A DNA stretch of 32,000 nucleotides from Candidatus Saccharimonadota bacterium (GTDB taxonomy: Bacteria > Patescibacteriota > Gracilibacteria > BD1-5 > UBA6164), in NCBI GenBank assembly GCA_004563595.2, contig CP042461.1, positions 330,001 through 362,000 on the forward strand. Reading direction: 5' to 3'. A model generated the notes under the pieces. It saw nothing but the letters and a program-made list of their open reading frames with translations, searched no databases and had not been told where the DNA came from. How positions within the stretch are numbered: the stretch's first letter is position 1; each line of letters starts with the position of its first letter. This document shows positions 233 to 29,085 of the stretch, in pieces. A program made the translations under genes and the position numbers.

Positions 233-769
233 TTAAGCAGCTTTTTTGTAAGACTTCTTATTTTTTTTCATCTCGATTCTCTCAGAGAGTTCAATCCGAT
301 ATTTATTATTTTTTGGAGAGGTTCTTCTCCCATAGTCTTTACAATTTATTTTATACTTCTTCTTTGCATGATGAGTAAATAGAGCCATAAGACACTCTAC
401 TAAATCTTCTGCTGAGTCTTGTTTTAGGAATTTGGAAGCAGCATTACTTCCAAGACGTAACAAGGTTTCTAAAAAAAAGTATCTTTTCGTCCCATAGTAA
501 TTTTCAAGTATAATATTGTACTCAGTAAAATTATGGGATTTTTTTAGTATGACTTCTTCATTTGTAAAACGGCTACTTACGAGTACTCCTTTTTCTGTTA
601 GAATTAATCTTAATACAATACATGCAGCCTGCTTTCGATTTTTTTGAAAACCTTTTTGCTTTGCAACTGCGATAGCTAATTCGAATTGTTCATTTCCAAT
701 ATTTCGGAGATAAAAACAATCTTCTTTTTCTATATCTGTTTTAGTATCAACTGAAGTGAACTGTTTCAT
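233..769 (-). CDS. Hypothetical 178-aa protein, TGA-free, basic C-terminus
   Basis: Complete ORF under the standard code, ATG 767-769. GAAGGA lies 8 nt upstream of the ATG. All 6 Gly codons are GGN. I recognise no family. Confidence 0.6.
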   Translation of the reverse strand: MKQFTSVDTKTDIEKEDCFYLRNIGNEQFELAIAVAKQKGFQKNRKQAACIVLRLILTEKGVLVSSRFTNEEVILKKSHNFTEYNIILENYYGTKRYFFLETLLRLGSNAASKFLKQDSAEDLVECLMALFTHHAKKKYKINCKDYGRRTSPKNNKYRIELSERIEMKKNKKSYKKAA

Positions 770-896
770 AACTAAATTCCTTCTATTAATTCATTTATAT
801 TTATAATTATTATGAAAGAAAAGTCAAAAAATAAAATTTGCAGTATTCGTCAAAGAATAATATACTTATTTAGTATTATATTATTAAGAACATATT

Positions 897-1223
897 ATGT
901 CCCTACAAAAATGCCCAAACTGTAAAAAGAAAATCTCTTGGTGGAAAGTATATAAAAAAATTAACCAAAAAAGGTTTTATGGAAATCACTTATTAAAATG
1001 TTCAAAATGTTCTTATAAGTTATGACTGAAACTTAAGAAGAAAGACTTTACCGAGCGTTTATATAAAGCCTTCTTGTGGATGAGTTTCCCAATCTTATTA
1101 ATTGTGGCTGTTGCTCTATGAAAAATATTTTTCTGAACGGCAATTGTATTGGTTGTTTTATACCATTTTGCTGCAATGCATTATATTATTACAAAATATA
1201 AATATGATACATGTAAGAAATAA
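897..1223 (+). CDS. Small zinc-ribbon membrane protein (CPNC..CSKC plus 2 predicted TM helices)
   Basis: ATG 897 to TAA 1221-1223, 109 codons, 3 in-frame TGA=Gly. N-terminal CxxC-X22-CxxC followed by hydrophobic helices. An in-frame TAA at 885 bounds the start. Confidence 0.45.
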
Positions 1224-1225
1224 AA

Positions 1226-1261
1226 AACTGAGGGTTTAGATATTTTCTTCCCAACCCAGTT
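1226..1261. terminator. Weak bulged hairpin between convergent genes
   Basis: aactgagggtt ... aacccagtt followed by a T-run. It overlaps the mutY stop and is an imperfect stem. Confidence 0.3.
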
Positions 1262-2222
1262 TTTCTTTTTTATTAAAAATACCAAATTCATGTTCTCAGG
1301 CTTGAACTTGAGCATGATAAAAGAAATAGTTTCATTTATTTGAAGCTATTTTTTTGTATGGAGGTCTTACTGAGAGAGAAAGGTTAAATTTATTTTTAAA
1401 ATAAGCCTTTATAAAACCTCTGTGATCATCTCATGTTTTTCATAGCTGAAAAGCTTCAAATCTATCAGGATTTTCTGAATAATACTCTTTATGATCTTTA
1501 TGGATACAAACGAATATCTCTGCATCTTTTTTATTTATTTGTATAGATTTTTTTTCTGGCCTTGATTCAGATTTTCATTTATTTTTAAAAAATTGTGAAT
1601 TATGAAGAGGATAATTTTCCCAGTTAATATTTTGTTTTTCATTAATGTCAACAAGACTAGAAAAATCCATGAGAGCTGCATTTATTTCTCTTCATGAGAT
1701 TCAAGTTTTTTCAAATTGTTTTTGAATATTATTTTTAAATTCTTTAGAAAGTTTAATGAAACGGCTTCCAAGGTAGTATCTTGCAAATATTTTTTCTATA
1801 TTGGTATCAAAAGCTAATACACTTTGATTATGTCAAAAAGCAAGGATTGCTTGAGATGTATATGGTCAAACTCCAGGGAGAGAAAGAAGCTCATTATAAT
1901 CATTTGGGAATATTCAGTCATGATCATCTACTATAGCTTTTGCTGCTCCTAACATATTTCTTGCGCGAGAATAATATCAGAGTCATTCATAATATGGGAA
2001 AAAGGTATCATAGTCTATCTGAGCAAAATCATGAACTGTAGGAAATGCATCTATAACTTTTTCAAAGTAAGGAATCACACGTGAAACTTGGGTTTGTTGA
2101 AGAAAAATCTCGCTGATCCATACCTGATATGGCTCTTGTTTATGCCTCCATGGAAGATCATGACGTCAGTTTATTTTATACCAGTCCAAAATGATTTGGA
2201 AGGGGAAGTTTTCGAGTTTCAT
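1236..2222 (-). CDS. mutY: A/G-specific adenine DNA glycosylase MutY
   Basis: 329 codons with TGA=Gly. Motifs LDWYKINGRHDLPWR, PYQVWISEIFLQQTQV, GLGYYSRARNM and LPGVGPYTSQAI (HhH-GPD), plus a NUDIX-like C-terminal domain. Confidence 0.9.
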
Positions 2223-2291
2223 ATATTTGTTTTACTTGAAGAAAAATATTGATACTATCATACTAAGATTTAATAATTTTTCAAAACTCTT

Positions 2292-2936
2292 ATGGTCAAA
2301 AAAAAGCTACCAGGAATCTTGGAATACTTTATACATGATCAACTGGAAGATGATCCCTCTTTTTCTTATAGATCTATGTTTGGTTGATATGGTATTTATA
2401 GGTATTGAAAAATATTTTCTATACTACTTTGAAACCAGTTGTATTTCAAAGTGTGAGAAAATAATAGACAAGACTATTTAGATTATTGAAGCGAAGCATT
2501 TAAATATAAAAAGAAAACATGAGTCGTATGAGTTATGTCATATTATGAGCTCCCAGAAGATGTTATGGAGAATAGAGAATTGTTATTTGAATGGATTGAA
2601 AAGTCATTATCTGTTGAAACAAAAACGAAGAAAAAGACTCAAAAAGATAGAGAGCTTGATAAAAAAATACTTGAGTTTTTACAAGAAATACCAAAATGAA
2701 AAGTAAGCTCATACAAAAATCTTTGAATAAGGTTTGAGGTTCACCCAAGAAAGATAGCTTCAGTAATGAAGTATAACAAAAGTCCAGGAATATATCCTTG
2801 TTACAAAGTACTTGCTGACTCTGGAAAACTCAGTGGATATAATACTGATAGATGAGTTGAAGAAAAAGTAGAGAAGTTACAAGCTGATGGTATTGAGATA
2901 ATAAATGGAACCGTTGATAAAAAATATTTTATATAA
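2292..2936 (+). CDS. TfoX_N-domain / MGMT-family (Atl/Ogt-like DNA-binding domain) fusion protein
   Basis: ATG 2292 to TAA 2934-2936, 215 codons. N-terminal half MFGGYGIYRYGKIFSILLGNQLYFKVGENN..MSYYELPEDV matches TfoX_N. C-terminal half IPKGKVSSYKNLG..PRKIASVMKYN..YPCYKVL..GKLSGY matches the MGMT DNA-binding domain, with PCYK in place of PCHR. The N-terminal half is visible only with TGA=Gly. Confidence 0.75.
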
Positions 2937-2952
2937 TTAAAAAAAGTAATAA

Positions 2953-3423
2953 ATGGAAAGAATACAAAGAGCAGGATTCAAAGTAGCAGGATTAAAAATT
3001 ACAACTTCTAATACCCAAGCTATAAATGAAGGAAGTATTGGTATAGCATGGAATGATTTTTTTTCCAAAAATATATTCGCAAAAATACCAAATAAAATCG
3101 ATGATAGAATTTATGCCGTATATTCAAATTTTGAAGAGGGTTTCTCTGAAGATAATATGGATAAAAAATATGATTTAATTATTGGTTGTAAGGTTTCAGA
3201 CTTTACATGACTTCCAAAGTGGTTATCTAGCGCAGAAGTACCGGAACAAGAATATGCAAAATTTGTTGCAATCGGGAACCTTCCAAGAGCAGTACTTAAA
3301 ACATGGGAAGAAATTTGGGAATCAGATATTCCGAAAAACAATACATTTGATTTTGAGGTGTATTCTGAAAAATCTCAAAAATGAAATAATTCAGAAGTTG
3401 ATGTATACGTTTGAGTAAATTAA
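2953..3423 (+). CDS. GyrI-like / effector-binding (small-molecule binding) domain protein
   Basis: 157 codons with 3 TGA=Gly. The pattern ..IGIAWNDFF..IYAVYSNFE..YDLIIGCKV..EYAKFVAIGNLP..VLKTWEEIW..FDFEVY is typical of the GyrI-like/SbmC/Cass2 fold. Confidence 0.7.
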
Positions 3424-3453
3424 AAAAAGAGAAAGCATATGCTTTCTCTTTTT
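3424..3453. terminator. Bidirectional rho-independent terminator
   Basis: Palindrome aaaagagaaagcatatgctttctctttt. It overlaps the stop codon of the minus-strand M24 peptidase gene. Confidence 0.85.
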
Positions 3454-4510
3454 AAAACTCTACTTCACTAAAACATTCAACTCAGCCTTCTCATGCAAAA
3501 ACTATATTTTCAATTCTTACTCAAAATTTTCAGGGGATATAAATTCCAGGTTCAATAGTAAAAACCATTCAGGATCTTATTATATTTTGAGACTTCATTG
3601 TTATCCATGGTGCTTCATGAATATTTAAGCCTACTCAATGTCATGTAGAGTGTGTAAAATACTCTCCAAATCACGCATCAATAATGGAGTTTCTTGCCGC
3701 GGTGTCAATTAAAGTTGCTTTGAGTCATGGTTGAGAAATTTGAAATGCTTTCCTATAAGCTTTGGCTACAGCATTATATATTTTTTTGAATTCATCATAT
3801 GAACTATCTTTTTTTCATACCCAAAAGGTTCTGGTAAAATCACTACAATATCACTGGTATACTGCTCCCATATCAATTAAGAGAGGACCATCTCATATGA
3901 TAGTATCTCCAGCTGTATGATGTGGGATAGCTGAATTTTTTCAAAAAGCGACTATTGCTTCAAAACTTTCTGCTGATCCTCAAAACTCTAAGATTTTATT
4001 GACTATAAATGCTCTGATCTCTTTTTCTGTTTTTCAAATGAGTTCTCAAGTTTTTTTTAGGTCTTGTACTGCAAAAAATACTTTATCAATTATTTTTATA
4101 GCTTGTTTTATCTTTGTCTGTTCATTACTTTGTTTGATGATTCTTTTCTGTTCAAAATAAGGAGTTATAACTTCTATTTTATGTTTTGAGCCTTTTTCTA
4201 GTTGTCCGAAGTATTTAAGAGTTATATTGTCTTCTACTTTTTTTGTTTTTGAATCATGTGATTGATCTAAAATACAGTCAATAAGTTTTCATTCTGATTT
4301 TGTGAAAACTACTTTTTCTTTTCATGTTTTATGTTTGATACTCTCTATATCCACACACTCTTTTTTATTAAAATACCTTGAGTCAAGGATAATATTTATA
4401 CAGTGCTTTTTGATAATAATTCATCCGAGAGATGGTTGAAATCAGAGTAAATAATTGAACTCATTATTAATGATTCAGTTATCTGTATCTGTGATAATAA
4501 TAGTAGCCAT
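3452..4510 (-). CDS. pepP: M24-family Xaa-Pro aminopeptidase/dipeptidase
   Basis: 353 codons. Motifs LLIDMGAVYQGYCSDFTRT, THSTGHGVGLNIHEAP, FTIEPGIY and GVRIEN (pita-bread metal ligands), with many TGA at Gly. Confidence 0.85.
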
Positions 4511-4633
4511 ATTTTATATTTAGTATATATAAATCATTATAATATATTTTTCCAAAATAATCAATGAATAACTTTACAAAAAAGTAAAAACTCATAATAT
4601 GTATATATACTGTATATATTAAAAGAGTATTTT

Positions 4634-5761
4634 ATGGGAAAAGAAAAATTATCACTCAAAGATATGATGTTTAACAAACAAAGAGTTACTTTTTTATCTT
4701 GATTAATAAAAGAAGCATATAAGGAGTTTGATGAGGTGAACTTTATAGACGATGTTCTTGTGAAGTTTCCAGAATTAGAGCTCAAAGAAAGGATTTATCA
4801 TATAAAAGATAATTTAAAAATATATCTCCCAGATAATTATAAGCTAGCTGTGAGTATTATGCGTCAAAGTTTACCACCAGAGCTTGATCCAAATAAAACA
4901 GATGATGATTTTGGGTATTTTATTTTATCTTCGTTTTGAGAGTATATTGCAGAATACTGATGTAATTGAGAGTATCTAGATTTTTCTCTTTCTAATTTTG
5001 AAGAATTTACAAAAAGATTTTCTATGGAATTTGCGATTCGTCCTTTTTTGAAAAAGTACCCAGAGCAAACACTTGTCTATGTTGAGGAGTGGTCAAAACA
5101 TGATAATTACCATGTAAGAAGATTTGCGAGCGAATGAATTCGTCCAAGTCTTCCATGGTGAGGGAAAGTTGATATTGGGATTCAAAATACTTTTGATGTT
5201 CTGGATAATCTTTTTTCAGACCATACATCTTATGTATTTCGTTCTGTTGCAAACAATATGAACGATATTTCAAAAATAGATCCTATTTGAGTACTCTCAA
5301 AATTAGATGAATGGAAGAAATCAAGAAAACAATCAGAGAAAAATATGGACTATATTATGAGGCATTCACTCAGGACTTTACTGAGATCAGGACATAAAGA
5401 ATCTCTTCAGTTTATTTGATACCAAAAACCTGATATTTCTATCAAAAATTTTCAAATTTTAACTCCATCAGTTTCTTTATGAGAAAGCCTAAAGTTTGAA
5501 TTTGAAATAGATTCAAAAAATGACCAAGTCTTAATGATAGATTATATTATACATTTTGTGAAAGCCAGTGGGAAAAATTCATGAAAAACGTTTAAGATTT
5601 CAAAGAAAAAAATATGAAAATGAGAAAATATAAAAATAACAAAAAAACACCCACTTAGGGAAATGACAACATTGAAACTCTATCCTTGAAAGCATTTTAT
5701 TGAATTGCAAATCAATGGAGAGAAGTTTGGGAAAATAGAATTTGATTTTAAGATGAATTAA
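4634..5761 (+). CDS. DNA alkylation repair protein, AlkC-like HEAT-repeat glycosylase with C-terminal Ig-like domain
   Basis: 376 codons. Contains the signature HVRRFASEGIRPSLPW and a beta-rich C-terminal ~100 aa. This fits the COG4335/AlkC architecture. Confidence 0.7.
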
Positions 5762-5782
5762 GTCTACTAAAAAATATAGACT
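5761..5782 (+). terminator. Weak hairpin after the AlkC-like gene
   Basis: agtcta-N10-tagact followed by tt. Short stem with a poor T-tract. Confidence 0.25.
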
Positions 5783-5836
5783 TTATACAACATATATATA
5801 AAATATAATAAATTAATATTTAATAGAAAATAATAT

Positions 5837-7078: not shown

Positions 7079-7094
7079 GGAAGACAAGTAATCG

Positions 7095-7265: not shown

Positions 7266-7294
7266 TTTTTCTTAAATAATTATTTCTACTCTAT

Positions 7295-7690: not shown

Positions 7691-7696
7691 TTACTC

Positions 7697-8113: not shown

Positions 8114-8143
8114 TGTACAAAAAAATAGCTATTACAAAGTAAA

Positions 8144-8179: not shown

Positions 8180-8262
8180 GAAAAAAGTTGTCACACTATT
8201 ATGTTTCAAACGTATAAAAGCCTGTAGTCGCTACGATGAATTATATTTTAAAAAACTATATT

Positions 8263-9405
8263 ATGAAAAACTGAACAAAAAAAACTCTATTAACTACTAG
8301 TATTATATGACTTGCATTACTAGTAAATCCTGTTAGTGCAGCAAACCTATCATTTGATGAGGCATTTAAAAATCAAATTTTAGAAGAAGTTAAAATGGAA
8401 CTAAAAGATGAGGTAAACGGTGCAGAAGAAATAAACTCTATATCAAAAGAACTAGATGAGTTAATCAAAAATTGAGACCTTAAGAATAATCTTTTAACTG
8501 AGTTAAAAGAGGAAATAGCTTTTCTAAAAAATGCTGATTTTAAAAATCAATTAGCACAAGATTTAAAAAGCTTAGAGGAAATTAATGATGGAAAAAAGTT
8601 TTATGACGTATTGAATGATGTATATGAGAAATTAGATAATTATTATGAAGAGCATGATGAAGAGATAGAAGGTGAGGATGATTTTGAAGACTATAGTTAT
8701 AGTTTTACTAATGAAAAAACAGACATTATAGAAGCTTTAGAAGAAGAAGTGAGTTATATTAACGATAAAAAATTAAAAGACGTTGTAGTATCAACGATTC
8801 AAGAATTAAAATCTATAAATAATGAAGATACATTTTTTGAAAAACTTGATGTAACTTACGATAAATTAGATGAATACTTTGGAGAGGATGATGATTTCGA
8901 AGATGATAACTTTGAAGACGAATGAGAAGATTATAATTTTACAGAAGATAAAAAAGATATATTAAAGTATCTTTGAGATGAAATTAATAACTTAGAAGAT
9001 TCAACATTTAAATCTGATATGTTATCAAATATTCAAAAATTGAATGCTCAAAATAATGAAGATGATTTTTTTGATACATTAGATAAAGTTTATGAGAGTG
9101 TAGATAATTATTATGAAGAAAATGGAACTTCATTTAATGAAGACTTTGATTTCGAAGATATAGAAGACTTTGATTTTGATACTGAAAAAAAAGAAATTAT
9201 ACAATCTATTACTGAAGAAATTAATAGTTTAGATAATGAAGAATTAAAGAATGAACTCTTAGTGGCTTTGGAAAAAATAGAAAATGAAACAAACCCAAAT
9301 AATTTTTTCTCAAAAATTGATGATATATATGATATATTAGATGATTCATATGATGATTTTAATGATATTGATGATGAAGATGAATTTTTCGATGACGAAA
9401 AATAA
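8263..9405 (+). CDS. Secreted hyper-acidic tandem-repeat protein
   Basis: 381 codons (alternative in-frame ATG 8236). Signal peptide MKNGTKKTLLTTSIIGLALLVNPVSA|AN. The remainder is extremely D/E-rich and built from repeated modules. 5 in-frame TGA=Gly. Confidence 0.75.
8707..9402 (+). repeat. Three tandem ~75-79-aa coding repeats (8707-8940, 8941-9177, 9178-9402) plus a degenerate unit upstream (~8440-8706)
   Basis: Each unit has the form T-E/D-K-K-D/E-I-I..L..EI..L.D..LK......I..L....N.D.FF..LD.VYD.LD.YY.E....EDFDFED. Conservation is clear at the protein level and diverged at the nucleotide level. Confidence 0.7.
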
Positions 9406-9412
9406 AGATATT

Positions 9413-9440
9413 ACAACCTGCAGCTTTTTGTGCAGGTTGT
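9413..9440 (+). terminator. Hairpin terminator after the acidic repeat gene
   Basis: acaacctgca-gctttttg-tgcaggttgt, a 10-bp GC-containing stem. The downstream T-tract is modest. Confidence 0.55.
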
Positions 9441-9476
9441 ACTTATTGCTTTAACTTAATATCTAAATATAATATA

Positions 9477-18911: not shown

Positions 18912-18912
18912 T

Positions 18913-20417: not shown

Positions 20418-20729
20418 ATGGCAATTGTATTAAACGAAGAAAACTTTAAAGACACTATAAAGGAGGGGATAACTCTTGTTGATTTTTGGGCAGAATGGTG
20501 TGGTCCTTGTCAACAAATGCTTCCAATACTTGAAGATTTCTCAAAAGAAATGGAATGAAAAATGAAAGTATGAAAGGTCAATGTTGATGAAAATCCAGGT
20601 ATATCAGCTGAGTACAGAGTTATGAGTATTCCAACACTTATTGTTCTAAAAGATGGTGAGATGGTTGAACAAATGGTATGAGTAAAGAGTAGCGATGAAC
20701 TGAAAGAAGTTTGTGCTAAATACTTATAA
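20418..20729 (+). CDS. trxA: Thioredoxin
   Basis: 104 codons. [18 protein letters not shown] ... [12 protein letters not shown]. Three TGA align with Gly-type positions of canonical thioredoxins. Confidence 0.95.
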
Positions 20730-20743
20730 AAATATTAAAAAAG

Positions 20744-20778
20744 AACCCCGGTATCCTTTATGGATACTGGGGTTTTTA
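20744..20778. terminator. Bidirectional rho-independent terminator
   Basis: aaccccggtatcc-tttat-ggatactggggtt (13 bp with one G-U pair), with A-run and T-run flanks. Confidence 0.85.
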
Positions 20779-20928
20779 TTATGAGATAACATATAGTTTC
20801 CCTTGGCTGATCGCGTAGGGTACTATAACTATACTCAAAGCTATTATTAATAAGGGAACATACATATAAATTATGATTTCAGTATATGTATGTCCTTGCG
20901 CTAATAGGTCTTTTGTGATTTGTATCAT
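20779..20928 (-). CDS. Small hydrophobic protein (49 aa), TGA-free, strong SD
   Basis: MIQITKDLLAQGHTYTEIIIYMYVPLLIIALSIVIVPYAISQGKLYVIS. AAGGAG lies 7 nt upstream of ATG 20926-20928. One TM helix. The longer track ORF (to 20961) lacks an SD. Confidence 0.45.
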   Translation of the reverse strand: MIQITKDLLAQGHTYTEIIIYMYVPLLIIALSIVIVPYAISQGKLYVIS

Positions 20929-20994
20929 AGTTATTCTCCTTTTCGTGTTAGATGGTATCAACGATATTATATATGTCTATATATTATTAGTTTC

Positions 20995-21168
20995 TTAAAA
21001 ACATTGAGCTAATCCATAAATTACACTAGCTATAGAAGGACTTAATATTGCATAACATTTTAGTAACCTTTTTAAAGAGAGAGTTTTTGTTATTTTTTTC
21101 TGTTTTGGAAAAATAATAATCTCTGCTGTAGTGGGGGGTATTATTCTTTGTATATTATGTATACTCAT
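20995..21168 (-). CDS. Small basic protein (57 aa), TGA-free, strong SD
   Basis: MSIHNIQRIIPPTTAEIIIFPKQKKITKTLSLKRLLKCYAILSPSIASVIYGLAQCF. AAGGAGG lies 7 nt upstream of ATG 21166-21168, and a sigma70-like promoter lies just upstream. Confidence 0.45.
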   Translation of the reverse strand: MSIHNIQRIIPPTTAEIIIFPKQKKITKTLSLKRLLKCYAILSPSIASVIYGLAQCF

Positions 21169-21210
21169 ATCAAAACCTCCTTTTTATTGTGAGGATAGCA
21201 AGCTCAGCAT

Positions 21211-21239
21211 AATATACGTGGATTTATTGACAAGTCAAT
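21211..21239 (-). promoter_or_regulatory. Sigma70-like promoter for the small-ORF pair, with a palindromic operator-like site over the -35
   Basis: On the minus strand: TTGACT (complement of 21233-21238), 16-nt spacer, TATATT (complement of 21211-21216). The inverted repeat ATTGAC-aa-GTCAAT at 21226-21239 overlaps the -35. Confidence 0.5.
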
Positions 21240-21356
21240 GTTTTTATTGAAACGTTTGACAATTTCCTGGTTGCTTAAATGTAAAGAATCTGACAAAGTT
21301 AGATTTTCGATATTATCTCTACAAAGGAGATAGAAATATTCTTGATAACACAATTA

Positions 21357-21384
21357 TTGACTTTCTATTATAACTCATTATATT
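21357..21384 (+). promoter_or_regulatory. Sigma70-like promoter upstream of the structured leader and CHC2 gene
   Basis: TTGACT 21357-21362, 16-nt spacer, TATATT 21379-21384. It would give a leader of about 190 nt. Confidence 0.4.
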
Positions 21385-21481
21385 AAAGTTAACTCTTCTC
21401 ATAAGATCTTTTAGTAGCTTAATAGATACCCTGTTTTTTTTCAGGATAAAATATTTATAGAGTTAGAAAGTGAAGTGAAGA

Positions 21482-21576
21482 GAGATGTTCGCAGTCCAAC
21501 GGTAGGTCTTGTATGGACTGATAACATCTCGTTAGTTGTACTTCGGGACCTACCACTTATTACTTTTTAATTTTTT
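21482..21576 (+). ncRNA. Candidate structured leader / small RNA with pseudoknot or attenuator potential
   Basis: Nested helices gagatgtt (21482-89)/aacatctc (21523-30) and cagtcca (21492-98)/tggactg (21514-20). The loop sequence ggtaggtc (21501-08) is complementary to gacctacc (21547-54), which is followed by a T-rich tract up to 21576. Confidence 0.4.
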
Positions 21577-21582
21577 ATAGTT

Positions 21583-22212
21583 ATGAATTCATTCAATGAT
21601 TCTGATTATTGAGAAATTGAAAAAAATGATCAAAATAGCAGAGGAAATCTTTCCTCTGCTATTAATGTATTATCTCAAAATGAAAATAATTATATTGACG
21701 ATATTAATGATTACGTAAATCAAGTAACTGATATATTACATCAAGAAAAAAAAGAAAAAAAATATTCTGATATTTATGGCAATACTTATGAAAAGATTGC
21801 TTGATTGAAAGAAAGGAGAATAAAAAAATCATCAATTGAGTTATTATTATCAAAGGTAAATATAGCAGATATTGCTGCGAGCTTATGAATGAAACTTAAT
21901 AATAAGCCTGGATCAAAAAATAGATATGTGAAATGTTTTACTTCTCATGATGAAAAAACTGGTTCCCTTTGCTTTATTCAGGATAAACAGTTTTATTACT
22001 GCTTTTGATGTGGCGCATCTGGGAATGCTATAGAACTAGTTATGGAGTATAGTAATACACATGCGCACAAAAAAAGAAATTTTTTTCAAGCAGTTCATTA
22101 TATCAAGAAAGTCACCGGTATAAAAGATAAACTCGAATATGAAAGTGTAGAAAAAATATATAAATCACCGATCATAAATAAATATGATCGTAAATATATT
22201 CATTTATTTTAA
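21583..22212 (+). CDS. Stand-alone CHC2 (DnaG-type) zinc-finger protein without a primase catalytic domain
   Basis: 210 codons. ..YVKCFTSHDEKTGSLCFIQDKQFYYCFGCGASGNAIELVMEY.. is the CHC2 zinc-binding motif (the Gly of CFGCG is TGA). No TOPRIM or RNA-polymerase domain follows. Confidence 0.7.
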
Positions 22213-22214
22213 TA

Positions 22215-22244
22215 AAAAAGACCTAAAATTTTTAGGTCTTTTTT
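22215..22244. terminator. Bidirectional rho-independent terminator
   Basis: aaaagacctaaaa-t-ttttaggtctttt. It overlaps the hrcA stop (22243-22245). Confidence 0.85.
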
Positions 22245-22941
22245 ATATGATTCCTCTTACAGCACTAATATTAAAGCTATAATTCATTTTCAACGATCAA
22301 ATAATTCAGATGTATCAGATATTTCAGTCTATTACTATAGGTTTTAGGATCATGGTATAATCTTTGAGGAATGGAAGTATATTTTCTTCTCAGATAAAAA
22401 GATTTATTCATTCTTGTTTTGGGAGCTCTTGGATAAATTTTGAGAATGCAAACTTGTCTTCGAGGATTTTTATGATAGAAAAAATAGAGTTTCATAACCT
22501 TTTATGGTTTTTCTCAAGGAAATTTCATGCTCAAGAGTGTTGAGTAATATGTTTTTCTGGTATGATAAAAAAAGCAATCTCTCAGGTGTTTTTTGCTAAT
22601 TCAAATGTAATTTTATGAGTGTAATCTGAAAGTTTATTAATTTTTTCTTGGCTTAAAAGTGAGTTTTCTTTTTGTAAGAAATGATCAGGGGAACTTTGCA
22701 TGAGATAGTTTACAAATGCTCTGAGTCACTTTGATGTTGGAAGCCTTCCTGCTGAATTGTATGGTTGATAGATAAGTTCAAGAGTTTCAAGCTTTGCCAT
22801 ATCATTTCTCACAGTGGCAGAACTGACTCACAGGTCATATTTTTGTAACAAAAGTTTACTTCATAAAACCTCTCAAGTTGCTAAATATTCATCAACAATG
22901 ATTTTAAGGATTTCTATGTTTCTATTTGTTAACTTTGTCAT
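22243..22941 (-). CDS. hrcA: Heat-inducible transcription repressor HrcA (compact, 232 aa)
   Basis: N-terminus [68 protein letters not shown]-terminus ..[23 protein letters not shown]. Both ends match conserved HrcA termini. Confidence 0.8.
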
Positions 22942-22953
22942 TATATATAATAA

Positions 22954-24042
22954 TTAACGTATAATTTCTAGGAGCTGTTGGACGGTTTTTTCTTTGTTAT
23001 AGTTTCATAATATAGCAGAGTAAGAAATTTCTTTATTTTCTTTATTTAAGAATTTTTTCATTTCCTCTAATATGCTATTCGTTGAGATTGGAGAGAAATA
23101 ACTCGCATCCTCTCAAAAAATATCTTTTATATTCATGAGGTTACTCGCTAAAATTGGTGTATTTAAAAAGAATGGTTCAGAAAGTCTAAATGGAAAAGGC
23201 TCGTATAGACTTGGGAATATAACTCAAAGAGACTTCTTGTATAAAAGGCTCTTATCGCTGGGGTTTAATAATCATAAAAAATGAATATTGGTTTGAAGAT
23301 TATGCTCTATTACTAGAGTTCTGAGAGCTATGTTTTTTGAAATAGTATCTCATAACATGACTAAATCTATATTCAAATTTCAGTTATTCTCTTTTTTGAG
23401 TCTATCAAATACATGAATAAGCCTCTCTACATTTTTTTCTATCCCATCACTTCATGAATATATAAGAAAATCATTTTGAAGTTCAAATTTCATTTTAATG
23501 TTTGTTTTCAGGTTTATATCTGAGCTGATAGCTTCTCTATTTATAAAAAATGCTGGTAATAGTGAGATTTTATTTTCGGGAAGATTTAACCTTTCGATCA
23601 ATTCATTTTTTGAATTCTCATCAAAACAGATGACCTTATGAGAGTTCTTTAAGTTTTTCTCAAGAAGATAGAGGTATTTATATTTACTAATATAATTACT
23701 GAAGTTTTGATAATAGATATCTTTTAATGAGCAGAGAATAGTATAATATTCTCATTTATAAAAAATAGGTTTATTATGATTAAAAAATATCATAAGGTCA
23801 TTTTTATCATTTTTCAATATTTTGAGAAACTTTATTTGCTCGTGCAAACTTCCATTTTTTATGTTTACTTGCTTGATTTTACTATTATCCACCTTAAAAA
23901 CATCACTATTATGATTTGTGTAAATGGTATATATTATATCGGGACTTGTTTTGATAAGCTTAATTACAAGTTCAATAATGAAGAGAGAATATGAGCTACT
24001 ATCTAAGAATCTAAGATCTAAACCAATTTTCATTGTATACAA
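22954..24042 (-). CDS. GT-B fold glycosyltransferase (family 4 / group 1)
   Basis: 363 codons (MKIGLD at 24033 is an alternative start). The C-terminal ..LGVIFPSLYEPFPFRLSEPFFLNTPILAS.. is the E-x7-E GT4 signature. Confidence 0.75.
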
Positions 24043-24112
24043 TTTTTAAAAATTTTAACTTTTCCTTACCCTTGAGTATACTATAAAAAATAAATTTTAA
24101 AAGAATATTTGT

Positions 24113-24379
24113 ATGATTTTAAAAGAATATATAAATAAAGAAAATTGAAAACGAGTTTTTAAAATAAAAGTTGTCCCAAATTCTAAAGAGACAACTTTTT
24201 TTTCAGTAATGGATAATGGCATATTAAAGATAAAACTGAGATCACTACCTGAAAAATGAAAAGCGAATAAAGAGCTTATTGACTATTTTGCAAATAAATT
24301 AGAAGTTAAGAAAAATAAAATAAAAATTTTATCTGGATTAACCGATAAAATAAAATTAATTCAGGTTGATTTTCTTTAA
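24113..24379 (+). CDS. DUF167 (YggU-like, UPF0235) protein
   Basis: 89 codons. ..KIKVVPNSKET..LKIKLRSLPEKGKANKELIDYFANKLEVKKNKIKILSGLTDKIKLIQV. Confidence 0.75.
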
Positions 24380-24412
24380 TTATACTATATAATTCTAGAC
24401 TGATAGACCTTA

Positions 24413-24643
24413 ATGAAAATTATTATGATAGTTAAGTTATGATTGTTGATTATTTATTTGATAGCAATGTGTTTATTCTTTGTTTTAATTAATAAAAGAC
24501 TAGGAATTCTCAACGAAAGGCATATGAAACATATATGAAGTATATGTTTACAAGGAAATCATAGTATAACGATGAAAATCATTATATTTCTATTTATTAT
24601 ATTGATTATATTATCTGCCATTGTAATATTTACAGTTTTATAA
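24413..24643 (+). CDS. Small membrane protein (2 TM helices), hypothetical
   Basis: 77 codons, 2 TGA=Gly, bounded by an in-frame TAG at 24404. Confidence 0.35.
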
Positions 24644-24659
24644 TATTAACTTATATATT

Positions 24660-25241
24660 ATGTCGAGTTTCTGTACAAAAGATTGATATACCGTTATTAG
24701 AAGGCATTATATACTTCCGCTATTAAAAGGTTGTAAATTTATGTTTCTCCTTACTTTGAGTTTCTTTTTATATTGGCTCGCTCTTAATTTTATCGGCAGT
24801 TTAGAAGGAATACCATATGTAAGAATGATTCTATTTCTTTTTGTTTTTCTTACCTTAAATTATGCCTTTATTAGTTTTATTCTTTACTTAATTTATTTTA
24901 GTTATAATCTGATTGTAATATTTCAAGATCAGATAGTACTGATAAAATGTTCTTTGTTACTAAGAGATGATATTGAAGTAATAGATTCATATAGGATTGT
25001 AAAAGTTGATGGTTTTTCTCGTTGATTTTTTGCAAATGTTTTATGATATTGAAACTTAGTGATAGAGCAACAAAGAAATGATGTAAGATTATTCCACTTT
25101 GTTCCATTACCATATAAAGTTTTACTTATTATAAAGCAGCAGAGAGAAGATGTTTTGGCTGATAGGAAGAGAAAATATATAATCTCAGAAAGTGAAGAAG
25201 GAAAATTGAATGAAAAAGAGGAGGATATACAAATATTATAG
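24660..25241 (+). CDS. Membrane protein with a bacterial PH-like (bPH_2/DUF304, YdbS-like) domain
   Basis: 194 codons. ..VIRRHYILPLL.., two TM helices, then ..IVKVDGFSRGFFANVLGYGNLVIEQQ..VRLFHFVPLPYKV.. and an acidic tail. Confidence 0.5.
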
Positions 25242-25260
25242 ATAACGAATAAAAAGAATA

Positions 25261-26316
25261 ATGCCCAAGAAGATTTTAGTTTGATTATCATGAGGAGTTG
25301 ATAGTGCTGTAACAGCTTACCTCCTAAAAAAACAGTGATATGATGTTACTGCGTGATTTATGATCAACTATTTAGCCCCAGAGTGAGAGAAGTGTTCTAC
25401 TCTGGAAGATATAGAAGTCGCAAAAGAGGTAGCTAAATATTTAGATATCCCTTTTTTTACCTTTGATTTTCGTAGTGAATATGAGGAAAAAGTCTTAAAC
25501 TATATGTATGAATGATATAAAAAATGAATCACCCCAAATCCTGATATCATGTGTAATAGTGAGGTGAAGTTTAAAGTATTTTTAGATGAAGCACTTGAGG
25601 CTTGATTTGATATGGTAGCAACAGGGCATTATGCAAAAATCACAAAAGGTAGTGGAGATATATTTCATTTAAAAAAATGAGTTGATCAAAATAAAGATCA
25701 ATCATATTTTCTTGCAGGTTTAAATCAAAAACAGCTCAGTAAAGCATTATTTCCCATTTGAGATTTGGAAAAGCCTCGTGTAAGAGAAGTAGCGTTAGAG
25801 GCTGGACTTCCAAATGCTATGAGAAAAGATTCTCAATGAATTTGTTTTGTATGAAAGGTGAATATGGCTGATTTTTTAGAAAAGAAAATTAAACCAAAAC
25901 CAGGGAATATAGTAGATACCAACTGAAAAATATTATGAATTCATAAATGATCATTTTATTATACTATCTGACAAAGAAAAGGCCTTGATCTTTGATGACA
26001 ACCTGAACCTGTATTTGTGGTGAAAAAGGACCTTGAAAAAAATGAAGTAGTAGTTTGAACTGAAAAAGATATGGATCTCTACGACGATAAACTTACGATA
26101 AAAAATATGCATTTCATTGGAAAAACTGATTTTAAATTTCCAATGAAGCTCAAGTGCAAAATTAGATATAGACAAGCTGATCAAGACTGTAGTCTTACAA
26201 AGACTTGAGAGAAATATGAGGTTATATTCAACGAAAAACAAAGAGCCATTGCTTCATGACAAATATGTGCATTTTATGATGGGGATGATTTAATTATGAG
26301 CGGAGTAATAGAATAA
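25261..26316 (+). CDS. mnmA: tRNA-specific 2-thiouridylase MnmA
   Basis: 352 codons. KILVGLSGGVDSAV (PP-loop), TPNPDIMCN, VATGHYA, DQNKDQSYFL, KDSQGICFVG, and C-terminal ..AIASGQICAFYDGDDLIMSGVI. Confidence 0.95.
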
Positions 26317-26361
26317 TAATTCAGGCAAGAGATAATAAAGAATATAATAAATAATAAAATA

Positions 26362-27378
26362 ATGAAACAAAAATTTTTAGAAGCAACAAGAAACATACTC
26401 TTTCAAAATATGAGAGTCACTGATGAAAGAGTCGTATTAGTGTATGATTTGAATTCAGCGCTTTCAAAAGAAGTATCAGAATGATATATTCAAAACTTAA
26501 AAGAAAGAAAAAATACTGAGCTCATAGATTTTGATCAAATAGAAAAACCAGATTTGAAAGAAAGACTTTTTAATCTCATAGAATGATCAACAGTTATACT
26601 TGTCCAATCAACAAACTTTAGATTGGATGATTTTCGTATACGTCTTAATCTCCATAATGCTTGAGTATGATGCCTTGAACATAATCACCTTGCTTATATC
26701 AAAGATGATCAAATAGAAAATTATGCTGATGCTATTGAGTATAAAACTCCTTATTATGATCAGCTATCAAGTGCATTGAAGGATAAACTTGATAATGCAA
26801 ATAAGTTAACCGTTGAGACTTCAGGGAATTGAAGATTGGAGATTGAAGGTGGGTTTGAAAATATGAAGCAAAATACATGAAATTATAATTGAAAAAAGAG
26901 ATGAGGAACTTTTCCTATCTGAGAAAACTTCTCTGAAGCCAAAGATTTTGTACAAGTAAATGGTGAAATTACTATTTATGCCTATCCTGACTTCAACTTT
27001 GAAGTACAATTTTGTGAACCTTTCAGAATTAAAATTTCTGAGAGTAAAATTACATGTGATGATCAGAATTGTCCAGAAGAGTTCAGAAAACTATTAGATA
27101 AAATTAGTGATTCTGAAGATGGGGAAGTATTTATGAGAGAGTTATGATTTGGTATCAATACATGAATCACAAAACAAAAACCACTTTCGGATGTAAATGC
27201 CTTTGAGAGAGTCACATGATTTCATATGTCACTTTGAAAGAAACATAATATTTATAGAAAAAAAATTCATAAAAGTATTATTCAGAGGTATCATATAGAT
27301 ATTTTTCCAGATATAGAGAGGATACTGATTGATGGAGAGGTTGTTTTTGAAGGAGAAAAATATGTAATAGAAAAATAG
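26362..27378 (+). CDS. M29-like (AmpS/PepS-type) aminopeptidase, tentative
   Basis: 339 codons. ..RGGTFPIGENFSEA.., ..RELGFGINTGI.., ..TGFHMSLGKK.. resemble thermophilic metalloprotease (M29) motifs. The protein is shorter than typical members. Confidence 0.5.
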
Positions 27379-27410
27379 GCTAACCTTACGGTAAGCCTAT
27401 TTCTTTTTCT
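27373..27410. terminator. Bidirectional rho-independent terminator
   Basis: ataggctaacc-ttac-ggtaagcctat (one mismatch) followed by ttctttttc, between convergent gene ends at 27378 and 27418. Confidence 0.75.
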
Positions 27411-27417
27411 TTTCAAA

Positions 27418-28806
27418 TTACTGAGTCACAACTTTGAGACCATTAATTTGAGTACTGTTTTTTCCTCTTAAAAGTAATTTTAATTTAACTTCAGATTGTG
27501 TTAATCTATTTTTTAAGGTATTCCATTCTTCAAAGATTTCTATCGCTTTATTTGCTTTTTCTTTGTTTCCTGGAATTGCACTAATGACTGTATTATTTGT
27601 ATTAAATGTATTAAATGTTGTAGCTATAGTCACTGTAATTGAACTATCCTCAGCATTTGCATTTATTTGTTTAATAAGGTCATCAGCATCTTTTTTAGCA
27701 TCGTCATATATTGCTGTATATTTTGCTAAAGTTAATTGCTGTTTAATATCTGAAATATTCCCTTGTTCTGAGAGTATTTTAGAATATATATCTTCAAAAG
27801 ATAATAGTTCAGCAACATTATTTATTTCTAGCTGTAGATCTGTAACTTTTTTCTTTTCTTTTGTTGTAGAAGCGCCTGTTTTCAGAGTAATAAAGGTATC
27901 ATTGAGAAGTCTATTGAAACTATTTTTTAATAAATATTCACTTAAGATCGAATCATTCTGATCGAGATTATCTATTAAGTAAAGAGCAAATAGTCTTTCA
28001 TTTGATAAACGTTTTTTGCTTCCAAAAAGTAAATCATTTACTTCTACAGAAGAAGCTGTTAAATTTCCTTTATTTGTAGCATCAAGTACTTTTTGATTTG
28101 ACTTCACTTTAATTGTAGCGAGTTCGACACTTGCCTCAATGAAGTTTTCAACAGATCTACGCGAACATGAATCATGATACGTTCGAATTTCTCTTTGGGC
28201 CTCTTTATATGTATATGCTTCAGATGCAGATAAGAGAGTAGTTTTGTACTCTTTTCGTGCATTTTCAAGCTTACTATATATTTTTGGGAGGGTGCCATTT
28301 AGACGAAAATATCCTTTATGGTTTTCTATTCCAGCGTTTGTTGCTCCTAGCATAATAGAAAAAATACCCATACCTGTTGTACTTGAACCTGCTAGCCCAG
28401 CTATGCCTAGCAGGCTATCACCAATAATATTTATTAGGCCTTGGTTTGAATCTAGTTTGGTGTCTTTTGACATCATAGCATCAAACCAAATCCGACAAAG
28501 GTTATTAGAAGACGTTATAGCGGAATCAACTAAAAGTCTTATATTCTCAGGGCTTGGATTCCCCGCTTTAACCACCTCTCCTTTTTTATTTAAAGTACCT
28601 CGAACTATATTTTCTATAATAGTAAGATCTTTATAGTCCTGTTTTATTGACTCTAGTGATCCTTTTTCTGGATTTTCTAAATCCTGAATATTATAATTTA
28701 ATGGAGGTGCTAATGAAAAAGTTCTTTTCATTGCTCCATACGTTCCACAACCAGAAACGCTTATTAGTAACATTAATATGATGATTTCTCTCATACTTTT
28801 TTTCAT
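27418..28806 (-). CDS. TGA-free 462-aa lipoprotein with a central glycine-zipper hydrophobic segment and helical C-terminal half
   Basis: The only long standard-code ORF in the window. Signal peptide plus lipobox MKKSMREIIILMLLISVSG|C. GGAG lies 7 nt upstream of the ATG. All 25 Gly codons are GGN (hand count). I recognise no family. Confidence 0.85.
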   Translation of the reverse strand: MKKSMREIIILMLLISVSGCGTYGAMKRTFSLAPPLNYNIQDLENPEKGSLESIKQDYKDLTIIENIVRGTLNKKGEVVKAGNPSPENIRLLVDSAITSSNNLCRIWFDAMMSKDTKLDSNQGLINIIGDSLLGIAGLAGSSTTGMGIFSIMLGATNAGIENHKGYFRLNGTLPKIYSKLENARKEYKTTLLSASEAYTYKEAQREIRTYHDSCSRRSVENFIEASVELATIKVKSNQKVLDATNKGNLTASSVEVNDLLFGSKKRLSNERLFALYLIDNLDQNDSILSEYLLKNSFNRLLNDTFITLKTGASTTKEKKKVTDLQLEINNVAELLSFEDIYSKILSEQGNISDIKQQLTLAKYTAIYDDAKKDADDLIKQINANAEDSSITVTIATTFNTFNTNNTVISAIPGNKEKANKAIEIFEEWNTLKNRLTQSEVKLKLLLRGKNSTQINGLKVVTQ

Positions 28807-29085
28807 ATTTTTTCTCCACGTGGTCTAAATAATGAAAATGGGTTATATTTATTTTTGTTTTTTTTAGATTTCTTATTTTTATTTTTGTTAAAAAATCGGA
28901 GAGATTATACTGAACTGACATTAACAGGGCATTAATATTTGGAAGTTTTTATTTTTATAACTTGACATAATTGTAAAATATTGTAGTTAAATTGAGGGTA
29001 TTTATTATAATAAGAATTTTCATTTGCTAATATACTCATAATATATACACTAAAACCTGATTTATATAAATATATCTACTGTTAC

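Follow-up and report, generated by a model that had tools for sequence, protein, structure and literature searches.

Genes that avoid a reassigned codon

The closest precedent for the genes described here comes from phages. Code-11-compatible phages, which are TGA-free, have been predicted for Gracilibacteria and Absconditabacteria hosts (Liu, Jaffe, Chen, Bor, Banfield, mBio 2023; PMC10746230); they are linked to Gracilibacteria by CRISPR spacers, the prophages found were all TGA-rich, and the authors read the absence of TGA in the phages as a compatibility that is maintained, not as a mark of recency. A link with Shine-Dalgarno (SD) motifs and a conservation across host orthologues are not reported in that study (PMC10746230). 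The genes considered here, which we name cassettes, resemble such phages in that they are associated with a code-25 host, lack TGA, end at stops other than TGA and are read identically in codes 11 and 25, a pattern that suggests a class of genes readable in both genetic codes. Unlike the phages, which are whole genomes, they are single chromosomal genes without phage hallmark, with no match in PHROGs and no relative in viral contigs.

Phage morons are reportedly autonomous units, made of a promoter, an ORF and a terminator, that are located between conserved genes. Like morons, the cassettes consist of single ORFs that come with a promoter-like site and a factor-independent terminator of their own and separate genes found side by side in relatives, and their products are often membrane proteins or lipoproteins. 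Morons are defined within prophages, whereas the cassettes sit among chromosomal housekeeping genes and their promoters are candidates. Stop-codon-recoded phages are said to display two coding types per genome, and here also a single replicon combines genes that use and genes that avoid a reassigned stop codon, which may be read as two translational regimes. In those phages, however, the recoded late genes are the special ones, in a standard-code host, while in the present genome, itself recoded, it is the code-neutral genes that stand out. Bacteroidota are likewise said to translate mostly without SD motifs, with SD-led exceptions such as rpsU in Flavobacterium johnsoniae. The likeness is in the A-rich, G-poor leaders without SD and in the handful of strong-SD genes that form a separate initiation class; yet the SD-led genes of Bacteroidota are native and regulatory, in a lineage without codon reassignment, whereas the cassettes are accessory, partly xenologous and avoid the reassigned codon. 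Gracilibacteria, for their part, are often without bS21 (PMC9297842). Finally, ordinary horizontal acquisition is documented in CPR bacteria, with 126 such genes in Vampirococcus (PMC8080830), and the cassettes recall these in being accessory, in showing foreign affinity and in occupying variable regions of a genome with code 25. Ordinary xenologues would nevertheless be expected to gain TGA on amelioration, while the cassettes are native-like in their non-glycine codons and still TGA-free.

Two classes of genes in the window and beyond

The window, that is, the whole stretch of 32,000 nucleotides analysed, is part of the genome of Candidatus Gracilibacteria bacterium 28_42_T64, which is closed (chromosome of 1.34 Mb) and uses genetic code 25, where UGA stands for glycine, as is evident at conserved motifs such as PTGGGKS in RecQ and LPGVGPYT in MutY. 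With TAA and TAG as sole stops and the longest ATG-started frame retained, the window comprises 40 ORFs of at least 49 aa, 36 of which contain 2 to 33 in-frame TGA codons, where the sequence-only reading had put the number of such genes at roughly 40. In these 36 ORFs TGA makes up 61% of the glycine codons (328 TGA vs 213 GGN). Exactly four ORFs are free of TGA (Table 1); all end with TAA and all, as had been claimed, lie on the minus strand. As the two short ones share a single transcription unit, the independent loci number three, not four, and counted in this way the same-strand coincidence is weak (probability about 0.01). Zero TGA would be expected with a probability of 7.6e-11 for the 462-aa ORF, where every glycine codon is GGN. 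Taken alone, the absence is significant there and in the 178-aa ORF (P=0.004), but not in the 49-aa ORF (P=0.15) or in the 57-aa ORF (P=0.39).

SD motifs had been placed 7-8 nt from the ATG of all four ORFs, and they were found there again. Their strength was expressed as the duplex energy of positions -20 to -4 with ACCUCCUUA, an E. coli-type 16S tail that may not be that of the host; on this scale the four ORFs range from -5.7 kcal/mol, a value reached by about 4-6% of random 17-mers of the window, to the AAGGAGG of the 57-aa ORF, the strongest match at any ORF start. None of the 36 TGA-using genes has an SD motif, and their energies all lie above -2.5 kcal/mol. The four strongest matches are thus the four TGA-free ORFs, a perfect separation by TGA use (4/4 vs 0/36, Fisher p = 1/91,390, about 1e-5). 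AAGGAG shows no enrichment over the window (12 observed vs 14.4 expected), and a window-wide scan of SD-plus-start combinations yielded no further case heading an intergenic ORF. The existence of two classes, TGA-free genes with SD and TGA-using genes without, is therefore confirmed.

This association, proposed as the sign of a distinct class, extends beyond the window. Among 49 related Gracilibacteria loci (855 ORFs, from naive first-ATG calls), an SD precedes 6 of 15 informative TGA-free ORFs (40%) and 13 of 669 TGA-using ones (1.9%; p = 8e-7), native starts having about 5% G at each position from -20 to -1. Of 12 cassette ends, 9 are followed by a hairpin and a T-run, while for native genes the count is 43 in 150 (p = 0.002). 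One further case, on a MAG contig of a kind that can be chimeric, is a TGA-free, SD-led protein of the DUF3373 family with a signal peptide and a C-terminal Phe, presumably an outer-membrane protein.

Table 1. Features of the three TGA-free loci of the window
Feature	Position	Strand	Remarks
178-aa ORF, fast-evolving, A9Q91_01640	233..769	-	0 TGA in 6 Gly codons, P=0.004
SD GAAGGA of 178-aa gene	778..783	-	8 nt 5' of ATG; -5.7 kcal/mol
Promoter-like TTGACT-N16-TATAAA, 178-aa gene	800..827	-	read from sequence; conserved in 3/4 orthologues
Intrinsic terminator, 178-aa cassette	193..224	-	hairpin, -13.2 kcal/mol, and T-run
57-aa ORF, first short ORF, putative gene	20995..21168	-	TGA-free, one Gly codon
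SD AAGGAGG of 57-aa ORF	21176..21182	-	7 nt 5' of ATG; -12.3 kcal/mol
Promoter-like TTGACT-N16-TATATT, both short ORFs	21211..21238	-	10/12 consensus positions; consensus match only
49-aa ORF, second short ORF, putative gene	20779..20928	-	TGA-free, two Gly codons
SD AAGGAG of 49-aa ORF	20936..20941	-	7 nt 5' of ATG; -8.7 kcal/mol
Intrinsic terminator closing two-ORF cassette	20736..20774	-	hairpin AACCCCAGTATCC...GGATACCGGGGTT, -18.1 kcal/mol, then T-run
Lineage-specific insertion, 1.5 kb	20730..22242	.	between trx (20418-20729) and hrcA (22243-22941)
Lipoprotein ORF, 462 aa, A9Q91_01805	27418..28806	-	0 TGA in 25 Gly codons
SD core GGAG of lipoprotein gene	28814..28817	-	8 nt 5' of ATG; -6.4 kcal/mol
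Intrinsic terminator, lipoprotein cassette	27365..27402	-	30-nt hairpin and T-run, -15.1 kcal/mol; begins 15 nt past stop

Three cassettes and their relatives

Each locus combines an SD, a TGA-free ORF ended by TAA and an intrinsic terminator, and a promoter-like site was read at two of the three, the lipoprotein locus being the exception; as the consensus scan is overall uninformative in this AT-rich DNA, these sites are candidates only. The 462-aa ORF, with its signal peptide and lipobox LLISVSGC, encodes a lipoprotein of an uncharacterised all-alpha family of 142 homologues, most of which carry the lipobox. Its frame stays open under code 11, over 469 codons without any of the three stops in DNA of 28% GC. 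The AF2 model is all-alpha (pLDDT 75.5) and matches no PDB fold, nor does the protein match Pfam, PHROG or PADLOC families. The terminator reaches into the 3' end of gene 26362-27378, which is convergent. Two other Gracilibacteria loci, L089 and L092, hold family members that are likewise preceded by GGAG at 7-8 nt and have no TGA in 15 and 18 glycine codons respectively, the neighbours of the L092 copy carrying 7-34 TGA. The L089 copy is syntenic, in a deeply diverged Gracilibacterium whose MnmA and RecQ are only 75% and 60% identical to those of the window genome, and its terminator, 16 nt past the stop, shows an identical stem-bulge-stem-tetraloop architecture. It is the sister of the window lipoprotein (79% neighbour-joining bootstrap, at a Kimura distance of 1.3 substitutions per site), the monophyly of the three code-25 proteins being at 54%.

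The family is mostly rich in Gly, Ala, Arg and Pro, a composition that points to genomes of higher GC. All four members checked outside Gracilibacteria belong to non-recoded bacteria: three lie in loci read as standard-code (L090, L095 and L096) and one is a protein that NCBI assigns by name to Herbaspirillum. SD motifs precede most genes in L095 and in the AT-rich L096 (27% GC), and about half of those in L090, where the family member adjoins Fic and TraG-like genes. On this basis the family does derive mainly from SD-using bacteria with the standard code.

The 178-aa protein, of a family known only from Gracilibacteria, ends with a conserved AA. Its orthologues are syntenic in three other close relatives, where the variants (67-76% identity) are all TGA-free and SD-led, beside or near recJ. 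Third codon positions have the most substitutions (26/23/48 over the three positions), hence the ORF is coding. A purine-rich SD is kept at unchanged spacing in all four orthologues, in one of them (L085) although the remaining upstream region is beyond alignment. The terminator stem is also preserved, via compensatory changes (CCGTTAT/ATAACGG, CCGTTGT/ACAACGG, GCGTTAC/GTAACGC and TCGTTAC/GTAACGA). Glycine codons switch among GGA, GGT and GGG, never to TGA, while recJ of the same genomes toggles between TGA and GGN at 11-31% of its glycine sites.

The two-ORF cassette belongs to an insertion which also contains a structured non-coding stretch and a TGA-using gene of the CHC2 primase-type zinc-ribbon kind (21583-22212; Zn_ribbon_DnaG match, E = 6.5e-16), with no att-like repeats at its flanks; trx directly adjoins hrcA in L003, L015 and L021. 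A single transmembrane helix is predicted in the 49-aa ORF, with the hydrophobic stretch IIIYMYVPLLIIALSIVIVPYAI. No homologue of the 57-aa ORF appeared in the metagenome contig scan, and it matches no Pfam, PHROGs or PADLOC family.

Origin and maintenance

We may understand these loci as autonomous accessory expression cassettes, coding mostly for envelope or membrane proteins, that Gracilibacteria would have acquired from Gram-negative bacteria with the standard code and SD-led translation, or from the mobile elements of such bacteria. Their genes would be translated via classical SD/anti-SD pairing, while the host's own genes would rely on G-poor, A-rich leaders without SD. The presence of SD and complete absence of TGA would then be actively maintained, not remnants of a recent transfer, either by purifying selection in the chromosome or because the cassettes reside in mobile elements free of TGA, for instance the code-11-compatible phages of Gracilibacteria, and are re-seeded from them. 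To this combination of foreign derivation and active upkeep we grant an even chance of being correct. The distinct origin proposed from the sequence finds support in the lipoprotein, with its non-recoded relatives outside Gracilibacteria, and in the two-ORF cassette, as a lineage-specific insertion beside the zinc-ribbon gene; beyond the lipoprotein, a foreign source is what we would expect. No cassette homologue above 45% identity was present in any standard-code genome or viral contig searched, so nothing points directly to continuing exchange or to phages as a reservoir.

That the import was recent had also been proposed, and this part is not supported. Unselected arrivals from AT-rich, standard-code, SD-using donors, with TGA not yet gained and SD not yet lost, would account for the pattern, and AT-rich standard-code members of the lipoprotein family with SD-led genes do exist (L096). 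The mnmA-recQ interval is a variable insertion hotspot and the trx-hrcA junction takes insertions as well; a TGA-free, SD-led ORF of L015 has kept a foreign GC3 (0.21 vs 0.08), and the HaeIII restriction-modification pair of L048 is TGA-poor. The neutral probability of a TGA-free 178-aa gene across the four close lineages, calibrated on recJ, is about 0.05, which is marginal and not decisive. With a bootstrap of 54% and a donor of the L096 type, the lipoprotein copies might even stem from independent recent insertions at the same hotspot. Yet codon usage is native-like (z = -1.1 and -3.0 for non-glycine codons, vs a native sd of 1.24), as is GC3, which tracks the resident genome; the sister lipoproteins are syntenic, TGA-free and SD-led despite the divergence of MnmA and RecQ; the L085 leader has kept its SD and little else; and no near-identical donor was found among 5.8 billion proteins. 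We consider recent import rather unlikely, and a native high-expression set unlikely. In such a set the SD would boost initiation and TGA would be avoided because tRNA-Gly(UCA) would decode UGA more slowly or with lower accuracy, so that the correlation would reflect codon optimisation. Genes for which high expression is expected are indeed TGA-depleted in relatives (PNPase, DEAD-box helicases, L21, L1, L7/L12, L10 and thioredoxin), and in the cassettes the promoter-like sites come close to consensus and the terminators are strong. This suggestion of the sequence-only reading is nonetheless disfavoured: the ribosomal-protein genes are only partly depleted (L1 10/19, L21 2/9) and have no SD, the window thioredoxin uses TGA at 3 of 7 glycine codons, and TGA is the majority glycine codon (61-85%). 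The cassettes, moreover, are accessory and patchy, which is unusual for top-expressed genes, and their avoidance is absolute, with none in 25, 15, 18, 41 and 11 glycine codons.

An absolute, not graded, avoidance that persists in diverged genomes would be natural if the cassettes had to stay translatable when UGA decoding is off, for example under stress, or when a TGA-free phage inactivates tRNA-Gly(UCA) or supplies release factor 2. In that state, initiation led by an SD would help the cassettes to compete for ribosomes, and the lipoprotein and small membrane peptides would have roles in exclusion, in defence or in remodelling of the envelope. The mostly envelope-located products and the existence of TGA-free Gracilibacteria phages fit such a regime, but the products match no known defence families, and we regard it as highly doubtful. 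It is scarcely credible that SD-like motifs and TGA-free ORFs co-occur by chance, or that the ORFs are not genes: the two short ORFs have few glycine codons and no homologues found, and the two long genes have SDs of only moderate strength, but the separation is significant both in the window and in independent loci, and the long stop-free frame of the lipoprotein has its many homologues. ORF, SD and terminator are conserved in orthologues, and the same cassettes recur in assemblies made independently by JGI, ENA and Logan. For the two long genes, an artefact is already as good as disproved.

Genetic code and initiation signals

The window (27.9% GC) is covered over 9 kb by ORFs of at least 100 codons when TGA is kept as a stop, as against 43 kb when TAA and TAG alone terminate translation. 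The in-frame TGA triplets sit at conserved glycine sites, for example in RecQ (PTGGGKS) and in MutY (LPGVGPYT), and because such motifs read as glycine, decoding of TGA as tryptophan (code 4) was ruled out. The 462-residue lipoprotein described below has the same sequence as A9Q91_01805, a hypothetical protein of Candidatus Gracilibacteria bacterium 28_42_T64 (a 1,343,103-bp contig), a closed genome with a GC content of 28.9%, predicted to use code 25 and devoid of prfB (Sieber et al., 2019). Discussions of this recoding of UGA into glycine, in Gracilibacteria and in Absconditabacteria, often present it as a genetic firewall to gene flow (PMC8080830).

A naive calling, in which each ORF was begun at the first ATG of its longest open frame, yielded 40 ORFs. 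In-frame TGA is present in 36 of them, and with 328 TGA against 213 GGN it makes 61% of the glycine codons of the window. The remaining four are entirely free of TGA and all lie on the minus strand, just as the sequence-only reading had noticed, and all end with TAA; they make up the three loci that we term cassettes. TGA absence is highly significant in the lipoprotein gene (25 glycine codons, P = 7.6e-11), significant in the 178-aa gene (6 glycine codons, P = 0.004), and not significant in the two short ORFs.

Features of the window. SD motifs lie 7-8 nt before the start; energies are in kcal/mol, those of the SD being computed with an E. coli-type 16S tail
Feature	Coordinates	Strand	Upstream elements	SD energy	Downstream element	Product or content
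178-aa gene	233-769	minus	TTGACT-N16-TATAAA (promoter-like); GAAGGA	-5.7	terminator, -13	basic protein, A9Q91_01640
Repeat-protein gene	8236-9405				terminator	389 aa, signal peptide
Terminator of the repeat-protein gene	9412-9441					11-bp stem
trx-hrcA insertion	20730-22242					two-ORF cassette and zinc-ribbon gene
Two-short-ORF unit	20.7-21.25 kb	minus	TTGACT-N16-TATATT (consensus match), AAGGAGG-N7-ATG, AAGGAG-N7-ATG		hairpin, -18, and T-run	
49-aa ORF (candidate gene)	20779-20928	minus	AAGGAG	-8.7		one predicted transmembrane helix
57-aa ORF (candidate gene)	20995-21168	minus	AAGGAGG	-12.3		peptide
Structured non-coding segment	21430-21560	minus				candidate RNA
Zinc-ribbon gene	21583-22212					CHC2 primase type
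mnmA-recQ interval	26317-29085					variable hotspot
Lipoprotein gene	27418-28806	minus	GGAG	-6.4	terminator, -15	462-aa lipoprotein

The claim at the heart of the sequence-only reading, that Shine-Dalgarno (SD) motifs precede the UGA-free ORFs and not the UGA-using genes, is borne out. Energies of the duplex between positions -20 to -4 and ACCUCCUUA, an E. coli-type 16S tail that may differ from that of the host, separate the 4 TGA-free from the 36 TGA-using ORFs perfectly, every one of the latter scoring above -2.5 kcal/mol (Fisher p = 1/91,390). A 16S gene was found neither in the window nor in the retrieved loci. Loss of the anti-SD has been reported in the literature only for a subgroup of Parcubacteria (PMC9297842). 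AAGGAG is not enriched in the window (12 observed, 14.4 expected), and a scan of its whole length found no further intergenic ORF that opens with an SD-plus-start, which rules out native starts that would have been mis-called, concealing their SD.

A RecQ search of the genome collection returned 49 Gracilibacteria loci (approximately 0.85 Mb), so that relatives were sampled only around recQ, and all 49 decode in-frame TGA. If we name informative a gene with enough glycine codons for zero TGA to be surprising at P < 0.02, an SD of -4.5 or stronger leads 6 of the 15 informative TGA-free ORFs of these loci, compared with 13 of the 669 TGA-using ones (p = 8e-7). The class of TGA-free, SD-led genes is real, and the Gracilibacteria lineage overall does not use SD. 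Indeed, ahead of the starts of 795 TGA-using ORFs (loci L003-L050 and L063), G is near 5% at every site between -20 and -1 (genome value, 14%), the stretch between -12 and -2 is rich in A, and 61% of the starts have T at -1; this context looks like the SD-less initiation signal of Bacteroidota.

In the relatives, the SD-led TGA-free ORFs code mostly for signal-peptide or multi-transmembrane proteins, and most of their cassettes are also orphans. Two further groups of TGA-poor genes have no SD. One (PNPase, DEAD-box helicases, L21, L1, L7/L12, L10 and thioredoxin) likely gathers highly expressed genes; the other, a C5-methyltransferase and HaeIII-type restriction endonuclease pair (locus L048, 4187-6252), uses TGA at 2/22 and 0/11 glycine codons in a genome where the figure is 66%, and was probably acquired horizontally in a separate, ordinary event. 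Next to recQ on a 7-kb contig of a Patescibacteria MAG, possibly a chimera, stand two adjoining SD-led TGA-free ORFs (locus L027, 5164-6825). A DUF3373-family ORF of that locus has no TGA among 41 glycine codons, and its signal peptide and C-terminal phenylalanine would fit an outer-membrane protein.

Anatomy and products of the cassettes

The three loci are built as compact transcription units. At all of them a factor-independent terminator, made of a hairpin of -13 to -18 kcal/mol followed by a T-run, stands directly 3' of the ORF; when the cassettes of relatives are included, terminators are present at 9 of 12 cassette ends and at 43 of 150 native genes (p = 0.002). In this AT-rich DNA, scans for sigma-70 promoters returned consensus matches no commoner than in shuffled sequence, so that what may be said of promoters comes from conservation in orthologues only: the promoter-like site of the 178-aa gene is kept in three of four. 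The cassettes share with morons the terminator placed directly after the ORF and, at the trx-hrcA and mnmA-recQ sites, insertion between genes that adjoin in relatives; as for the promoter of its own that a moron possesses, the candidates here are promoter-like consensus sites.

The product of the lipoprotein gene begins with a signal peptide and a lipobox, LLISVSGC (MKKSMREIIILMLLISVSGC; criterion [LVI][ASTVI][GAS]C), which is found in most of its 142 homologues. The four TGA-free ORFs have no match in Pfam, PHROGs or PADLOC. A Foldseek comparison of the lipoprotein model with the PDB gave nothing with E < 0.8, and the AF2 model of the 178-aa protein (pLDDT 45) was unusable. No RNA gene was detected in the window by an Rfam scan at gathering thresholds and by ARAGORN; a permissive Rfam scan of 20650-21650 returned terminator-like chance matches only, so that the short-ORF region does not correspond to any known RNA. 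The non-coding segment located 5' of the promoter-like site of this cassette, a segment without Rfam match, folds at -29 kcal/mol (z = -2.7 against shuffled sequence) and is possibly a leader or a small RNA. Elsewhere in the window, the 389-aa signal-peptide protein, the gene of which has only 5 TGA, is built of several repeats, very acidic and each about 60 residues long, with motifs such as NNEDDFFDTLDKVYESVDNYYEE.

Persistence and origin

The TGA-free genes have the same GC (0.31) and GC3 (0.18-0.23) as their neighbours, and their codon usage outside glycine (z = -1.1 for the lipoprotein, -3.0 for the 178-aa gene) falls inside the spread of native genes (-3.1 to +2.3); in this native-like composition and codon usage they are unlike a recent horizontal-transfer island. 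The 178-aa gene has orthologues in three other close relatives (L083, L085, L088), beside or near recJ, with 67-76% identity between the proteins when RecJ reaches 90-95%. None of the four copies contains TGA; in all of them the spacing of the SD is unchanged and compensatory changes preserve the terminator. Their glycine codons turn over among GGA, GGT and GGG, and recJ in the same genomes toggles between TGA and GGN at 11-31% of its glycine sites. With recJ as calibration, a two-state calculation puts the neutral probability of the TGA-free state at approximately 0.05, so that this gene, taken alone, is weak evidence for selection against TGA and falls short of a proof. The protein, which evolves far faster than RecJ, has a conserved N-terminal part of 60 residues and an invariant C-terminus ending with AA, followed by TAA.

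Divergence is deeper for the lipoprotein. In the relative L089 its gene occupies the same place and orientation, head-to-head with recQ, with 0 TGA among 15 glycine codons, TAGGAGAT as SD and a terminator of the same architecture, at an evolutionary distance where RecQ is 60%, MnmA 75% and HrcA 73% identical to the proteins of the window. A third copy, elsewhere in the genome of L092 (code 25, 25% GC), has 0 TGA among 18 glycine codons, and its neighbours have 7-34 TGA each. In a neighbour-joining distance tree (232 columns, 500 bootstraps), the window and L089 lipoproteins are sisters in 79% of bootstraps, with a Kimura distance of 1.3, and all three code-25 lipoproteins group together in 54%. 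Had their codons drifted neutrally at the genomic TGA frequency over the divergence that separates the first two, TGA would certainly have appeared in them. A GGAG or GAGG-type core is found at the same spacing in all four 178-aa orthologues and all three code-25 lipoprotein genes, a conservation which suggests that the SD is functional in Gracilibacteria. Chimeric assembly was ruled out, the same cassettes being present in independent assemblies and in the closed, curated genome.

A full HMMER search recovered the 142 relatives of the lipoprotein, most of them rich in Gly, Ala, Arg and Pro (GARP), as is typical of higher-GC bacteria, and one named by NCBI as from Herbaspirillum; a word-indexed profile search returned only two proteins, and the family alignment is without any conserved stretch of 7-10 columns. 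One member sits in a 39% GC standard-code locus with porin, Fic and TraG-like genes (L090, 7559-9906), and two others in SD-using, standard-code loci near genes for CHAT-domain proteases, trypsin, amidase and DUF2272 proteins (L095, 1228-8510; L096, 243-7457), which hints at a context of conflict or of mobile elements in standard-code bacteria.

The short-ORF cassette and the TGA-using zinc-ribbon gene are the contents of a 1.5-kb lineage-specific insertion between trx and hrcA, which adjoin in L003, L015 and L021. In L021 nothing lies in the mnmA-recQ interval, and the genes that occupy it in L003 and L023 are different; in the window, L089 and L015 it contains, on the opposite strand, ORFs for secreted proteins that are TGA-free and SD-led, that of L015 being non-homologous. 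No integrase or transposase was found at the cassette borders and no att-like repeats flank the trx-hrcA insertion, the zinc-ribbon gene beside the short-ORF cassette being the sole candidate of this kind. The distinct origin that had been suggested for the whole class is thus supported for the lipoprotein, by its standard-code relatives, and for the short-ORF cassette, by its lineage-specific insertion; at least part of the class is, judged from these sequence relationships, of foreign, standard-code origin.

Competing explanations

The reading that we favour, to which we give about an even chance, sees foreign-derived autonomous cassettes with a maintained SD and a maintained code-neutrality. 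Three routes may have kept them free of TGA: a mobile reservoir, high expression or a translation independent of UGA. A hidden TGA-free mobile reservoir would fit the hotspots, the patchy distribution and the TGA-free phages published for Gracilibacteria, but no close relatives of the cassettes, viral or standard-code, were found. The four ORFs resemble the genes of code-11-compatible phages of Gracilibacteria in their lack of in-frame TGA and their TAA stop, a likeness statistically meaningful for two of them, and the cassettes differ from such phages in having no PHROGs match, no relatives in the viral contigs of IMG/VR scanned with the lipoprotein and the 178-aa protein, and housekeeping genes as neighbours. 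In metagenomes, a scan with the 57-aa ORF found nothing and one with the 178-aa alignment only one already known contig. A recent import without selection, which the sequence-only reading had put forward, is unlikely, as it conflicts with a native-like composition and with diverged syntenic orthologues that are still TGA-free and SD-led.

The other proposal of the sequence-only reading, a native set selected for very high expression, would account for the partial depletion of TGA in genes for ribosomal and other abundant proteins; these genes, however, still use TGA and have no SD, and the cassettes are accessory, which makes it quite unlikely. A translation regime independent of UGA would explain why avoidance of TGA is absolute, and yet we hold it for improbable. 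A more specific form of this idea, decidedly doubtful in our opinion, is that code-25 Gracilibacteria keep, under purifying selection, a small regulon of code-neutral, SD-dependent genes that must stay translatable in conditions where the reading of UGA as glycine fails. Such conditions could arise when TGA-free phages attack and either disable tRNA-Gly(UCA) or supply RF2; alternatively, the need could be for translation after transfer into standard-code partner cells. A chance co-occurrence of SD and TGA absence, to be set beside the separations measured in the window and around recQ, is extremely improbable.

Were the regulon to exist, the absence of a codon would act as a gate between two translational regimes in a single cell. 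TGA-free, differently initiated chromosomal genes would mark which genes cross the code firewall or stay outside it, and would do so despite otherwise native-looking codons and deeply diverged orthologues. The class offers a simple signature of two features, an SD and no TGA, that lends itself to scanning of all genomes with code 25 or code 4, and it links to the TGA-free phages reported for Gracilibacteria hosts. It makes testable the function of SD and anti-SD in an otherwise SD-less lineage, and whether decoding of UGA is ever switched off. If the cassettes were only slowly ameliorating xenologues, they would still calibrate the speed at which a reassigned codon invades imported genes.

The orientation of the cassettes may be recorded here. 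GC skew is positive throughout the window (1-32000) and 28 of the 36 TGA-using genes lie on the plus strand, the three cassettes being opposite to most neighbouring genes (probability of about 0.01 for three independent loci); if positive skew marks the leading strand, they are possibly head-on to replication.
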